64,000 bases of DNA from Euglena gracilis. Lineage: Eukaryota. The stretch lies in assembly GCA_039621445.1 (NCBI GenBank), contig CP154954.1:23510954-23574953 (forward strand), read 5' to 3'. Both the position numbers and the translations under genes were made by a program. This document shows, in pieces, positions 11,031-29,942 of the stretch (its first letter is position 1; every line of letters starts with the position of its first letter). The notes beneath the pieces were generated by a model. The model searched no databases, was not told the DNA's origin, and worked only from the letters and a program-made list of their open reading frames with translations.

Positions 11031-12575
11031 TCAGTCAAAAGACCTCCATGGAGTGGGCCGGTTTATATGGGGGGGTCAATGAAGGGGTGGGTGCACGCTT
11101 ATTAAGAGCTCAGCACTATTCAAAACCTGGTTTACTCCAGGGGTGGCCCTGTGCTGCGACCCCCCCTCCAGCAGGCTGACACTCCAGCCCCAGTGGTGTG
11201 CTTCCTGTCACAATGCAGACGGACTGCAAATAAAAAAAACAAGTAGCAGACAGAAAAATAAGGAACTTGTGTCTGTTTTGAAAAAGGAAATACATATCAA
11301 GCCTCAGGGGGCTTAAATCTTGAACGTTAAAAATCTCATTTTCTCCAGGGGATTCAAATGAGAAATTCTTGGGAAGCAAAACGAGCGAATCACCAGAACT
11401 CAAAAACGAGCGGAAAAAAAAGGGGATTTGTGCGTACCCCGCAGCACATTTGGCTGGACCTGTCCTTCACATATTTGGCACAACATATTCTTTTGGGAAA
11501 TTTTAAATGAGCTCCTTGATGTCCTGCATATTTAATAAAAAAAGCATCAACAAATAAATTGTAGGGATTGGGCGATTTCAGTCCAATCTGCAGGGGAGGG
11601 GGGAATACGCTAGTCCGGCCACAAAATTTTCGCGCATTCTTTGTGCAAAAAAGTGCAAAAAAGTTCAAAATCTGAGAGAAGAATGCAGAAATTGCCCAAA
11701 ATAGGCAAAAATTGCCCCAAAAAACATGCAAAAATGGCACCAAATTTACAGCAATTGTATGGAATTTTGAGGAAAATGTCAATTTCAAAAAATGAAAAAA
11801 AAATTGCAAAAATGGTCCAAAAAAATGTGAAAAATTGGAATCATGCAAAAAATGCGCCAAAAAGCAAAAAAAAAATGTGCTGGAACAAATCGAAAAAATG
11901 CGCAAAAATGCGCAAGAAATGCGAAAAAATGTTAACCACGTCTCCCCTGAATCTGCTCTTCTCTCTAGCCCTTCCTTGAAGCTAGCATGGAAAAATATTT
12001 CAAACTAAACATACAACAAAAAGCATACACAACCAAAATAGCAAAACCACACAACATGAAACACACGAATGCACCCATTCAAACACACCAGGAAAGAGGG
12101 CCCCAATCAAGGGGTTCCATGGGTGGGGAATAGAAGGGGCGGAATAAGAGCCGAGAGCAGAGCTGGAAGGAAGGGGGGAGCGAGGTCGATCCACGATGGC
12201 ACTTTGCAGGGGAAAACTTCGTTTGAGGCCGAAAGTGCAGGAAAAACTTCGCTTAGAATTGGTCCACCTACCGCCCATAGGTTGTAAATATTCCCTTCAG
12301 CCCTGATTGAGAGACAGGGGCGGAGGTACACCGCCGCTGTGCCCGGACACGGGACCTGGGCAAAGACAGAACCATCATGCCAGCAGCAACGGCAATCGAA
12401 CGAGGTGGGACATCGAGAAACCCGAGACATATGACAAGCACAGCGGAGAGGGACAAGGAGCGCAGACGCCGGTGCACGCGCCAGCACACCCGTCAATCAC
12501 AGCACAAGTTGTTGAGGGAGGATTCAGAAGAGAGAGCGAAGGAGGGACTAGGGTGGGAGGTAGGGAAGGAGATAG

Positions 12576-12897
12576 ACCTCCACCTCCCACACACCCACAC
12601 CACACACTCCCCATCAGGGATTTTTTTTTTAAGACCGAGGGGAGGGGGGTCCCCCACCAACCCAGGGGGGTCCAGGGAAACCCCTTTTTGGAGTCAATTT
12701 GGGCCAAAAAACTTTCGGTGCTTTGCACCGAAAAAAAAATGCCAAAAATGGCCTTTTCCCCGCCTCTGGTGGGGGACCCACAAAACCCTTCGGGGTACCC
12801 CCGAGGGTACCCCCTTCGGGGGGATCTGGCGAGCAGGGATTTTCTTTAAGGTTGGACTCCCACAGGGAAGGGGGTGCAATCCACACCAATCAAGAAG
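12576..12897 (+). mobile_element. Diverged retroposon 3' end interrupted by a CAGGG(A)TTTTT-family MITE fragment
   Basis: ...CACACACTCCCCATC stops at ~12615. An insert beginning CAGGGATTTTTTTTTTAAGAC follows. ATCCACACCAATCAAGAAGAGA resumes at ~12879, before (GACA)n(GA)n. Confidence 0.55.
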
Positions 12898-13008
12898 AGA
12901 CAGACAGACAGACAGACAGACAGACAGACAGACAGACAGACAGACAGACAGACAGACAGACAGACAGAGAGAGAGAGAGAGAGAGAGAGAGAGAGAGAGA
13001 GAGAGAGA
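12898..13008. repeat. (GACA)n-(GA)n microsatellite
   Basis: Direct inspection. Other (GA)n tracts lie at ~13694-13750, 14651-14750, 25664-25718, 27879-28002 and 28497-28629. Confidence 0.95.
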
Positions 13009-13693
13009 AGACAGATAGCTAGCCTGCAAATGACTCCTCGGCCACTCCACGCAGATCAAACCGCTGTGTGTGGCTTCTCGGCCTGCAAGGACTCGAGCGC
13101 AAAGTCCCGCCCGCACAGCCTCCAGTGCAAGTCGGCACAGAGGAAAGAGCCACGTGTGGGTGAAGCCCGTGACCCTCCTGGTGAGTCGCGGGTCGGGCTC
13201 CCCATACCTTGCTTGGGGTCGAAGCAAGTGGCTCTATGCGGGCTGTAGCTCCGGGAAGGCTGGCCCATCTCTGGGTGAAGGAGGCGGGCTGACGGGGTGC
13301 CAGGACCCCAATCGGCGCCGGCCGTGGACCAGAGTATCCCAGAGTGGTGACCACCTTCACGCCAAGGGTGGGGCGAGTGGCCCCCGGGGTCCCCGCTCCT
13401 GGCAACCGGAGTTCCTGGGCCGTTCCTCGGGTGACGGCAGCACCCGAGGGCCATGCAACACGCGGAGCCGCTCTCCAGGTGGGTGCCCACGGGGCTTTAT
13501 CTCGCCTGCCTGGATGGAGCCGTGGGTGGCCCTGAGGGTCCGCATACCCTTGGGGTCCATGACTCGCCCACCCGCGGAACATGAGTGCCCCGTCACCAGG
13601 CGGTCTGCCCCCACCAGCCGGGCGTCGGGGGCATCGACAAGGAAGGCCCGGCTGGATCCGAAACCGCCTGGCTCTTTTACCGCTGTGTGCGGA
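13009..13693 (+). mobile_element. Retrozyme-like element A (~620-nt unit, highly structured, one HHR)
   Basis: Flanked by (GA)n on both sides. Short terminal redundancy ACCGCTGTGTG at 13060 and 13679 (619 apart). Many internal inverted pairs, e.g. CTTGCTT/AAGCAAG, GAGCCAC/GTGGCTC, CCTCGGGTG/CACCCGAGG, TGACGGGG/CCCCGTCA. HHR near the 3' end. Confidence 0.75.
13596..13671 (+). ncRNA. Type III hammerhead ribozyme A with variant core (UCGACAA)
   Basis: CCAGGCGGUC, predicted cut after C13605. Stem I UGCCCCC/GGGGGCA. Core UCGACAA 13634-40 replaces CUGANGA. Stem II GGA/UCC. GAAA 13660-63. ACCGCCUGG closes a 9-bp stem III. Loop I CCAGCCGGGC is perfectly complementary to loop II GCCCGGCUGG. Confidence 0.85.
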
Positions 13694-27876: not shown

Positions 27877-28000
27877 AAGAGAGAGAGAGAGAGAGAGAGA
27901 GATAGAGAGATAGAGAGAGAGAGAGAGAGAGAGAGAGAGAGAGAGAGAGAGAGAGAGAGAGAGAGAGAGAGAGAGAGAGAGAGAGAGAGAGAGAGAGAGA

Positions 28001-28497
28001 GACCAACCAAGAGGGGCAAACCGGGCAGGCCCCCCTCCGATCCCCGCACACCCCAACCAATGGGATGTGCTCCAAAGCCGCCGCAGCCGAAGGCAGCAGC
28101 AGCAGCAACCCAGCCCCAGCGGGAGGGGGGAGGGTTCAACAACCACCGGAGGAGCCTCCCACCCCCCAAGGGACCGGCAAAGCCGCAAACCCGACAAAAC
28201 GACCCAAACCAACTCCCGCAGGCAGCAGCAGGAGCAGCAGCAGCAACAGCGACAGCAGCAGCAGCAGCGCCAGCAGCAGCGGCAGCTTTCCTTCCAGGAG
28301 GACACCGGGGGCCGTGGTGGTGGGCCAGTGATGACGCAGCGTAGTGAGCCGGCACCCCCGGTTTCGCTGTGTCGGAGGCCAGGCGGGGGACGCCCTGCCG
28401 TCACCACCCAGAGCACCTCCTGGAATGAAAACAAAGCAGCCCCCTCCACCTCCGACACACCTGCACCACACACTTCCCATCCACACCAATCTGGAAG
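28001..28497 (+). mobile_element. 3' end of a retroposon family terminating in CACACCAATCTGGAA-(GA)n
   Basis: The last ~150 bp are nearly identical to 30384-30535 and related to 12576-12897. Each copy ends directly in a GA-type repeat. Confidence 0.6.
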
Positions 28498-29942
28498 AGA
28501 GAGAGAGAGAGAGAGAGAGAGAGAGAGAGAGAGAGAGAGAGAGAGAGAGAGAGAGAGAGAGAGAGAGAGAGAGAGAGAGAGAGAGAGAGAGAGAGAGAGA
28601 GAGAGAGAGAGAGAGAGAGAGAGAGAGAGTTGAGTTGAGTTGAGTTCAAAGTCACGTTCGTATTCATGGAATACGCTGGCCGCAGGTGGTATCATATGCA
28701 TGATATCCACGACCGTGACCGGGCCATGTACCCTCAGCCCCCCCTATTATTAGGTGTTATTTTGCGAGTGATGCGGCCAGCGCTCGGGCGGGCGGGCAGG
28801 CGGGCGGGCGGGCTGGGGCAATGGGCAGGGATGGGGATCCCACAGCCGCCGGTCCAACAAAAACAAAAGTAAAAAACAAAAAAACAGCAATAATAATATT
28901 TATAGATAGAGATGGAGATTATAGTCAGAGGAGTAGATCAGAAAAAGAAGAGGAAAGTAAGTGGCTTTCATCGTCGGTGGTTACTAGCAGGTTCCCTATT
29001 CAGCTCCCTATTCATAGATCCATCAGTTCCCTATTCAGCTCTTTTTGCCGTCCCTTGAAACGGAAGCGGGAGTCCTGAGTGTCATAAGAGAGACAAGATG
29101 GAGTCCCTTACTGTAAATGCTCAAGAAACTGCCAATTGCAAAAAAGAATCCTTTTTGACCAAAGAATTGCCCCACCCATTTGCCCCTGATTTGGCACCCA
29201 AAAATCCATAACCGTCTTGCCTAGGATTCGACGTAAGGGCAAGTGGCGGGACCCCCAACCTAAAATGGCGTGGTCCAGGTGACCAATTTGCGGCTCAGCA
29301 AAGCGCTGGGACGAAAAAACACCGTGGTGGGGGGTTTGGTCTAGAAGAGGTGCCAGTAGTTGTGGGGAAAACCAGCAGACCCAGGCCTATGGCCTGCCTA
29401 TGGCCTGGGGGCTATTGGCGACGAGGCGCCCTGAGAGCAAGACTGACAGTGCTCCCAATGGGGGAGAGTCTCCCGGCAGCCGTAAATGAACTCCAGGCAG
29501 ACGGGGCGTCCCGGTACACCGTGGGTAGTGTCAGGGGGGGGAGCTCTGGAGATCTGGCTGACGGCTGCAACCGAGGAGATGGTGAGCTGCAGGATGCGGG
29601 AGAGGTTGCGCCGGGCTGACAGATAGTGGGGGAAAGGCTGTACAAGGAGCACTGCCACTTCAATAAGGCAGCCGGGCACTCCACTCCACTTGATGTGGTA
29701 GTCACAGGGGCAGGGTGGCTCTAAATAGGAGGGAACAACTATCCCCTGTGATTATGAACCTCTCTCACTCCGTTCAAAACCAGCACAAGCCCACAGGTTG
29801 GCTCGAAAAAAAATCCGTAAACAATGGCTGATGATGGAGGATGAGAGGAAAAGGGAGAGAAGAAATTGTGGAGATGGGTCAAGAAAAATACCAAGACGGG
29901 AGTGCGATGCGTTGGAGAGAGCAGACCAGACCAGGGCCCCTG

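Follow-up and report, generated by a model that had tools for sequence, protein, structure and literature searches.

In a 64,000-nucleotide stretch of the Euglena gracilis genome (contig CP154954.1; this whole stretch is hereafter the window, and all positions are window coordinates), we identified a train of six sequence blocks, which lie head to tail on the + strand from about 12000 to 28629 with GA-type microsatellites between them. Each of the six terminates at its 3′ end in GAA(GA)n. One block is a coding fragment, assigned here to a Penelope-like element (PLE), and two of the non-coding blocks, element B and array C, carry predicted hammerhead ribozymes. The most probable explanation in our judgement, held with some reserve, is that the train grew by serial insertions in the same orientation, each primed at GA repeats by one PLE machinery, with the ribozyme-bearing B and C and the other non-coding blocks (ret1, ret2 and A) as passengers sharing the end GGAA(GA)n or CGAA(GA)n. 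Observed directly at this single locus are its anatomy, the motifs of the ribozymes, the nature of the coding fragment and the resemblance of the unit junction of C to a PLE tandem junction.

The order of the blocks is ret1, (GACA)n(GA)n, A, (GA)29, B, a degenerate (GA)n, array C, a GA-rich tract, the coding fragment, (GA)62, ret2 and (GA)67 (Table 1). A total of 13 tracts with at least five GA units were found in the window, all on the + strand and all within 12967-30378, and there was no tract with at least five TC units. A co-oriented train of blocks in (GA)n, in the same order, had been described in an earlier reading made from the letters alone (the sequence-only reading), and is borne out by Tandem Repeats Finder (TRF), by the tract counts and by the common strand. 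The purity of the GA tracts is uneven, (GA)67 and (GA)29 being pure and those 3′ of B and C being decayed, which suggests several insertion events of different ages.

For the coding fragment in its correct frame, a search of 1.84 billion representatives gave 34 homologues (E≤1e-3), mostly from metagenome assemblies, and a profile search for longer proteins yielded two, P0041 (1954 aa) and P0042 (2168 aa, from a metagenome). P0041 is the EukProt record EG_transcript_109 of Euglena gracilis itself, 93% identical over 97% of the query; the fragment matches it with 89-93% identity at residues 1320-1697 and stays colinear to residue 1954. The window copy corresponds to residues ~1290-1954, the C-terminal third or module, with residues 1 to ~1290 missing, and appears to be a 5′-truncated dead copy. 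What the sequence-only reading had called an ORF1-like fragment is therefore not ORF1; the match to P0041 identifies it as the C-terminal part of a putative GIY-YIG/reverse transcriptase (RT) polyprotein. Another frame of the fragment gave an 82% match to an open reading frame (ORF) in a transcript of Euglena longa (P0005). Neither endonuclease nor RT sequence was detected in the window, and there were no protein matches in it other than those of the PLE C-terminal module. Neither the coding fragment nor any of ten long proteins homologous to the C-terminal module matched a Pfam family.

The class of the element was read from P0041. The RVT_1 family is recognized in this protein with 32.1 bits, above the Pfam cutoff of 29.6, and 97 residues lie between D570 (YDFTTMY) and G667 (GVPMG), a candidate for the long insertion between RT motifs A and B (IFD). 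The N-terminus, MIYGAYHFPTGKWYVGQT.., contains a GIY-YIG-like motif (MIYGAY..KWYVGQT), and gave in addition a weak match to NCBIfam TIGR01453 (E 0.31). Between this motif and the RT lie a KR-rich, a CxC and a GxKY motif; RKRKAEKKAR (198-207), CPC (281-283) and GKKY (318-321) follow each other in this order and are invariant between P0041 and P0042. Since these motifs match the set given as diagnostic for PLEs with an N-terminal endonuclease (EN+) in the text of Craig, Yushenova, Rodriguez and Arkhipova 2021 (PMC8557442), we provisionally assign the coding fragment, by motif, to a PLE of the Naiad/Chlamys type, with a predicted N-terminal GIY-YIG-like endonuclease followed by RT. P0042, which shares 65% identity with P0041 across 1315 aa, has the same C-terminal module both before and after its EN-RT part, which indicates a head-to-tail tandem. 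Residues 1-606 and those from 607 onward form one ORF, which runs without a stop from the module through about 100 junction codons into the endonuclease of the next copy. No relatives of P0041 were found in the viral contigs or in the prokaryote genome contigs scanned, and a search of the ESM Atlas with P0015 gave no usable match.

Two further features of the C-terminal module were observed. The window copy has a 78-bp tandem duplication (27678-27856; 2.3 copies, 91% matches) at the Gly/Lys-rich end of the coding region, of which P0041 has about 1.3 copies. The motif SHDWxEGxRIGEAxNPGP occurs twice in the window copy (26432-26490 and 26877-26925) and also in P0041, and GEAxNPGP was present at the first aligned site in 7 of 13 sequences in the alignment of P0006-P0022. 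The end of RIGEAxNPGP is like that of the 2A 'ribosome-skipping' peptide, the canonical form of which is D(V/I)ExNPGP. We did not adopt the canonical 2A reading of RIGEAKNPGP, which is conserved but deviates from that form; if the motif does cause skipping, the polyprotein would be split.

Elements B and C carry predicted canonical type III hammerheads, and self-cleavage is predicted for both. The core pattern CUGANGA..CGAAA was found 40 times on the + strand (once in B, 39 times in C) and never on the - strand. With a strict type III descriptor (the core, a U-A closing pair, a non-G cut site, and helices I, II and III of at least 4, 3 and 4 bp, respectively), 39 matches remained on the + strand (1 in B and 38 in C), with none on the - strand; when the whole window was dinucleotide-shuffled 100 times and both strands were scanned, a single match was obtained. 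Cleavage is predicted 3′ of C14533 in B, and in C, with helices of 5/5/5 bp, 3′ of C14994 and then every ~273 nt; the core elements CUGAUGA, GAAA and GUC are present in 39 of the 40 units of C. The two hammerheads align colinearly, loops included, and 4 of the 18 pairs are changed on both sides yet still paired, indicating compensatory change. Paired cells make up 91% of this alignment versus 29-57% after the partners are slid by 1-3 columns. In both B and C the hammerhead lies 18-50 nt before the GA tail. A type I reading of the C hammerhead was rejected, for under it helix III has only 2 bp and helix I contains two mismatches, whereas the type III reading gives 5-bp helices I and III. Loops 1 (15000-15016) and 2 (15034-15048) of C are complementary over about 7-10 nt in each unit (GCUGGGGG with CCCCCAGG) and are paired with each other in the minimum-energy fold; this pairing may represent either a tertiary loop-loop contact or an alternative fold that competes and inhibits.

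The unit structure of B and C has a common polarity. Element B contains about 1.04 copies of an 836-nt unit: it starts at the upstream (GA)n, directly followed by AAACUCCCU, inside the GAAA box of the hammerhead, continues through one full unit, and ends in ..GAAUCCGAGUUCGAA(GA)n, the equivalent position near its start being the internal GAAUCCGAAAGAGAGG. The overlap is a terminal direct repeat of 33 nt (13753-13785 and 14590-14620; 94% identical, with a 23-nt exact core). Array C is composed of 40 head-to-tail units, each running from CTACACGGG to CCCAAGTGGAAGAAGAGAGAG and closed by a short GA tract. Its first unit is 5′-truncated inside the CUGAUGA box (CUGA/UGA), and the last is complete and runs into the microsatellite. 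B and C thus have the appearance of cDNAs longer than one unit, anchored at the 3′ end by the GA tract and starting 5′ at a point other than the ribozyme cut site. The 5′ ends of C (CUGA/UGA, 14751) and B (CGA/AAC, 13753) were both noted to fall in the hammerhead core, at a GA beside the upstream (GA)n, and this position could reflect microhomology, stalling of the RT at the folded core, or chance. The bodies of B and C differ, and the two are related, on the present evidence, through the type III hammerhead (70% over 64 nt), the only region in common and the only tie of B to C. Unit 38 of C (25150-25400) has many deletions and an expanded internal (GA)n; its hammerhead still satisfies the strict descriptor (matches at 25068, 25300 and 25565). 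Array C translated in one frame matched nothing in the protein collection.

The link between array C and the PLE is at the junctions. The junction peptide of the P0042 tandem (..TPSGNRESHAGDRGHLTTG..) matches the translated unit junction of C (..VPSGRRESYTGNRGHPTTG..) with 32.7 bits and 50% identity over 30 aa, a score reached by none of 100 shuffled queries (best 26.2), and when this peptide was compared with the window, the best 8 of 322 matches were all in array C. In addition, the 3′ termini of C and of the PLE in the window agree at 11 of 16 positions, as compared with 5-9 for the other cross-family pairs. By sequence, C looks like a non-autonomous element in which both PLE termini are retained and a hammerhead lies a short way in from the 3′ end. 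A relation of helper and passenger is plausible, because the unit junction of C resembles the head-to-tail junction of a PLE relative. The helper/parasite system that had been proposed for this locus gains plausibility to this extent; the helper suggested here is not an ORF1/ORF2 retroposon, and only B and C among the supposed parasites have predicted canonical hammerheads.

Element A was not counted as a ribozyme. It had been grouped with B and C as having a different body and the same hammerhead architecture, which holds for B and C but not for A, where a hammerhead-like outline (13596-13677; helix III of 9 bp, GUC, helix I of 7 bp and GAAA) has the box UCGACAA. Neither a CUGANGA box by the core pattern nor an Rfam hammerhead match even at E≤10 was found in A, and for outlines of this kind a descriptor without the core gave 71 matches on the + strand and 38 on the - strand of the window. 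A C3U/G8A rescue might be considered for such a variant box, but was not used as support for counting A. Between A and B there is a weak similarity (63 nt, 71%, E 6.6e-4).

The ret copies are tied to the other blocks solely through the GGAA(GA)n end. Two retroposon 3′ ends had been recognized in the train, and both indeed stand at GA tracts on the + strand, but ret1 has in common with ret2 and ret3, a third copy beyond the train, only about 39 nt (12577-12615) and the terminal 12-mer. The copy ret1 has its own (GACA)n tail, and an extra segment of about 265 nt (12616-12880) lies inside the shared 3′ module before the terminal 12-mer, with CAGGGATTTT at both ends; no second copy of this segment was found in the window, and it may represent either a small element nested in ret1 or a domain particular to a subfamily. 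The shorter ret3 lies 1.8 kb beyond the train, at the far (3′) border of a (GGGA)n(GA)n microsatellite. A 15-nt duplication, AGAGAGAGGAAAAGC, flanks it and starts within a GA run, the footprint expected of priming from a nick inside (GA)n. A metagenome scan for the ret 3′ end yielded four loci (L001-L004), all unrelated chance matches, and Rfam detected no ribozyme in the ret region or the PLE region.

Table 1. Coordinates of the blocks, ribozymes and GA tracts of the train and of the neighbouring ret copy (a slash in the hammerhead of C marks the predicted cut)
Feature	Position	Strand	Description
ret1, 3′ part of a 'ret'-type element	12000-12897	+	5′ limit uncertain; 3′ end TCCACACCAATCAAGAA
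(GACA)n then (GA)n	12898-13015	+	TRF period 4, 29.8 copies
Element A	13016-13693	+	non-coding, GC-rich; ends ..GTGCGGAA(GA)n
(GA)29	13694-13752	+	TRF
Element B	13753-14650	+	~1.04 copies of 836-nt unit; ends ..GTTCGAA(GA)n
Type III hammerhead of B	14526-14598	+	core CUGAGGA...GAAA, cut site GUC, helices I/II/III 6/4/7 bp
Degenerate (GA)n	14651-14750	+	TRF
Array C	14751-25661	+	40 head-to-tail units of 273 bp; TRF 14751-25670: period 273, 40.3 copies, 97% matches
Type III hammerhead of C, first full repeat	14988-15063	+	GUGGUC/UGGAG-17 nt-CUCCA CUGAUGA GGCCC-15 nt-GGGCC GAAA CCAC
Degenerate GA-rich tract	25662-25736	+	TRF
PLE 3′ part	25737-27877	+	2.1 kb, 5′-truncated, frameshifted; ends ..CCCACGTGGTAAAA(GA)n
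(GA)62	27878-28002	+	TRF
ret2, 5′-truncated 'ret' element	28003-28495	+	3′ end CCACACCAATCTGGAA
(GA)67, right edge of train	28496-28629	+	TRF
ret3, shorter third 'ret' copy	30385-30535	+	88% identical to ret2

The window is rich in repeats throughout. To the left of the train are A-rich short tandem repeats (10051-10224 and 11683-11931, with units such as CCAAAAATGC, 10-31 bp), and a coding-like repeat (..PKRPKVPFWALFGQK..) akin to them was noted at about 3499 and 51633. To the right, a 19-bp tandem repeat, CTGGGGGCTGTAAAAAAGG, in about 12 copies occupies 29940-30378 and terminates in ..CTGTAAAA(GA)n(GGGA)n, a terminus similar to the end of the PLE copy, ..GTGGTAAAA(GA)n; it is at the far side of this microsatellite that ret3 is inserted.

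From this anatomy we infer the following course, in which self-cleavage, circles, rolling-circle copying, the identity of the mobilizing element and the order of events are all conditional. The PLE endonuclease would nick the (TC)n strand, and the freed 3′ end would pair with the GA tract in the RNA and prime reverse transcription. In a single-unit transcript of B or C, the hammerhead cut would part the body from its 3′ terminus; transcripts with two ribozymes would cut themselves to unit length and might then be circularized. A circle would retain the GA tract at its junction, and priming there, followed by copying round the circle, would give a 1.04-mer in the case of B and a 40-mer in the case of C, so that the 3′ end would be set by the GA tract and the 5′ end would be arbitrary. 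Each insertion would leave (GA)n on both sides, the site would stay a target, and the train would grow. The full-length element of P0041 would be expected to end in ..GTGGTAAAA(GA)n and to start like CTACACGGGAAACCGTGG. The proposal of the sequence-only reading, that a microsatellite-targeted retrotransposon had inserted ribozyme families at this site, stands in so far as a microsatellite-associated retroelement and the ribozyme elements share the strand and the type of 3′ end; the candidate machinery is a PLE instead of an ORF1/ORF2 element.

A number of observations weigh against such PLE-driven, GA-primed insertion. For the endonuclease, GIY-YIG is the best Pfam family for residues 1-125 of P0041, at 17.5 bits (E 0.0051) and below the cutoff of 22.6; the single-sequence AlphaFold2 (AF2) model of the endonuclease region is poor (pLDDT 46.5), and sequence searches of the PDB gave no relative. 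The last 2.1 kb of the PLE, i.e., the copy in the window, contains no hammerhead core, and no similarity of A, B or ret to the PLE was found beyond the GAA(GA)n end. With respect to the ribozymes, Rfam gave no match at gathering score in the whole window: B matches RF00008 with 40.6 bits (E 1.3e-6), under the gathering score of 48.5, and C gave only a type I match of 14.9 bits, likewise under its gathering score. The long loops (15-17 nt) probably cost Rfam score. Folded in isolation, the motifs do not take up the hammerhead form at minimum energy and fare no better than shuffled sequences. For C folded as a circle, the predicted stability is unexceptional (z = -1.6), which lends no support to the viroid-like character proposed in the sequence-only reading. 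In B, two indels immediately ahead of the GA tract distinguish the copies of the terminal repeat from each other, which is unexpected if a single circle was the template. Variants in C occur in blocks of neighbouring identical units, e.g., units 20-27 and 34-37, and such clustering is explained by unequal crossing-over no less well than by rolling-circle copying. Finally, no target-site duplication was found around the whole train, the sole match being an 8-mer taken as chance.

The clustering of variants bears directly on an explanation that we regard as unlikely without discounting it, namely that array C is an ordinary satellite with an incidental hammerhead, expanded on the spot through unequal crossing-over, starting with an inserted unit or two, and involving no reverse transcription of circles. 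The hammerhead-bearing satellites of newt, schistosome and cave cricket would be its analogues, a preprint on animal retrozymes proposes this very route from PLE termini to tandem arrays, and both the 97% homogeneity of the array and the variants shared by neighbouring units agree with it. It is also compatible with a PLE-mediated arrival of the first units. Against it stand the ends of the array, in which the first unit is 5′-truncated and the last is complete at the GA tract as in a primed cDNA, and the occurrence in B of the same design of more than one unit with the same polarity; moreover, multicopy head-to-tail insertion is described for non-autonomous Chlamys elements (PMC8557442). The identity of the helper is at issue in a second explanation, to which we give a low probability: a LINE-like (long interspersed nuclear element; ORF1/ORF2, APE-endonuclease) retroposon, for which (GA)n is the target or is carried along, would have mobilized all the blocks, and the PLE fragment would be merely another insertion. 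Such a retroposon would be an APE/RT element with the 3′ end CACACCAATCTGGAA(GA)n. The uncharacterized ret, with three 5′-truncated copies, a fixed 3′ end and (GA)n, is a candidate for it, and the 15-nt duplication at ret3 fits priming of the LINE type as well. APE-type elements specific for (TC)n do exist, as reported for Kibi in fish (PMC3812793), and E. gracilis is reported to have L1-like RTs (bioRxiv 10.64898/2026.05.21.726589). The sole coding sequence in the train is, however, the PLE C-terminal module, with no other protein match in the window; no Pfam family was recognized for the ten longest ORFs outside array C, and the junction of C resembles that of the PLE, not ret.

The train could also be the product of one event, in which an RT primed on the rightmost (GA)n switched among GA-tailed RNAs to give one chimeric cDNA. 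The co-orientation of the blocks and their joining only by GA tracts, which would offer homology for switching, agree with a single event, as does the lack of any duplication found around the inner blocks or the whole train. The purity of the GA tracts, on the other hand, differs greatly, suggesting different ages, and ret1 has a (GACA)n tail of its own. We consider a single event very improbable, and retain serial insertion by one PLE machinery as the probable explanation of the train.

The Naiad/Chlamys clade of EN+ PLEs, for which the KR-rich, CxC and GxKY motifs are named, is described in PMC8557442 as having an insertion bias to microsatellites, either (CA)n, (C)n or (TA)n, as forming partial tandems as well as non-autonomous elements in multiple head-to-tail copies, and as being mostly without hammerheads, the few in Chlamys being listed in its supplementary file S2. 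The element of Euglena agrees with this description in protein plan (a candidate N-terminal GIY-YIG-like motif, KR-rich, CxC, GxKY, RT and a long C-terminal extension) and, at one locus, in 5′ truncation, in partial tandems or head-to-tail copies and in microsatellite association. The non-autonomous derivatives described there, e.g., MRC1 of Chlamydomonas, resemble the autonomous element at the ends, as C appears to do here. The differences from that description are the euglenid host, the (GA)n target, passengers with predicted canonical hammerheads, and a C-terminal module with RIGEAxNPGP, of which we found no description there. Among other PLEs, the endonuclease-less Athena and Coprina (PMC8557442) are described with a hammerhead close to the 3′ end and, after it, a short repeat that is the complement of the priming DNA end, as here, but their repeats are telomeric and their sites are chromosome ends, in contrast to (GA)n inside a chromosome. 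Kibi and other microsatellite-specific APE-type retrotransposons of the non-LTR class (LTR, long terminal repeat), as described in PMC3812793, share the strand-specific insertion into (TC)n/(GA)n and differ in their APE endonuclease and fish hosts, the sole coding element here being predicted as GIY-YIG/RT; Pfam detected no APE domain in P0041 or P0042.

Array C is similar to the non-LTR retrozymes of animals, described (bioRxiv 10.64898/2026.07.22.740005, PMC5680766) as small non-coding head-to-tail units with one hammerhead per unit (in C, 273 nt and 39 cores in 40 units), for which an origin from PLE termini and a cycle through self-cut circular RNA are proposed. Those have a type I or minimal hammerhead, in contrast to the predicted type III with three full helices in a protist host, and array C lies inside a microsatellite and ends at a GA tract. 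Element B (~836 nt) is similar to the LTR retrozymes of plants in its type III hammerhead and non-coding body, of a few hundred nucleotides in the plant elements, but its terminal repeat is 33 nt, where the plant elements have LTRs of some hundred bp together with a primer-binding site, a polypurine tract (PPT) and a 4-bp target duplication; B has neither LTRs nor a 4-bp duplication, and its likely helper is a PLE, not Ty3/Gypsy. For the tRNA-Met primer-binding motif, no match was found in the train region, the sole match in the window being at 58223 with 2 mismatches.

In the literature searched there was no report of PLEs in Euglena, and 'Euglen' does not occur in the main text of PMC8557442, whose supplementary tables may list more hosts; a search by title and abstract gave no report of hammerheads in Euglena. 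What appears to be new is thus the presence in Euglena of a Naiad/Chlamys-type PLE and of hammerhead elements, the kind of genomic parasite being already known. The mobilization of retrozymes, and the enzyme behind it, have so far been argued mainly from co-occurrence with Penelope-like elements. In this locus, one microsatellite joins a coding PLE fragment, a 40-unit hammerhead array with a PLE-like junction, and a second hammerhead element of more than one unit, and the position of all three 3′ ends at a GA tract leads to a testable model of priming, of interest to PLE and retrozyme research. We put forward, as a tentative possibility, that euglenids harbour true retrozymes, i.e., self-cutting circular RNAs of ~273 and ~836 nt with type III hammerheads, which captured both PLE termini and undergo rolling-circle reverse transcription primed at nicked (TC)n. 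If this is true, the locus would be the first direct sequence footprint of the formation of a tandem retrozyme array, in which the 3′ end lies at the tract used for priming and the 5′ end is random, and the partnership between hammerheads and PLEs would be extended to Discoba and to a PLE clade that has been thought to be free of hammerheads.

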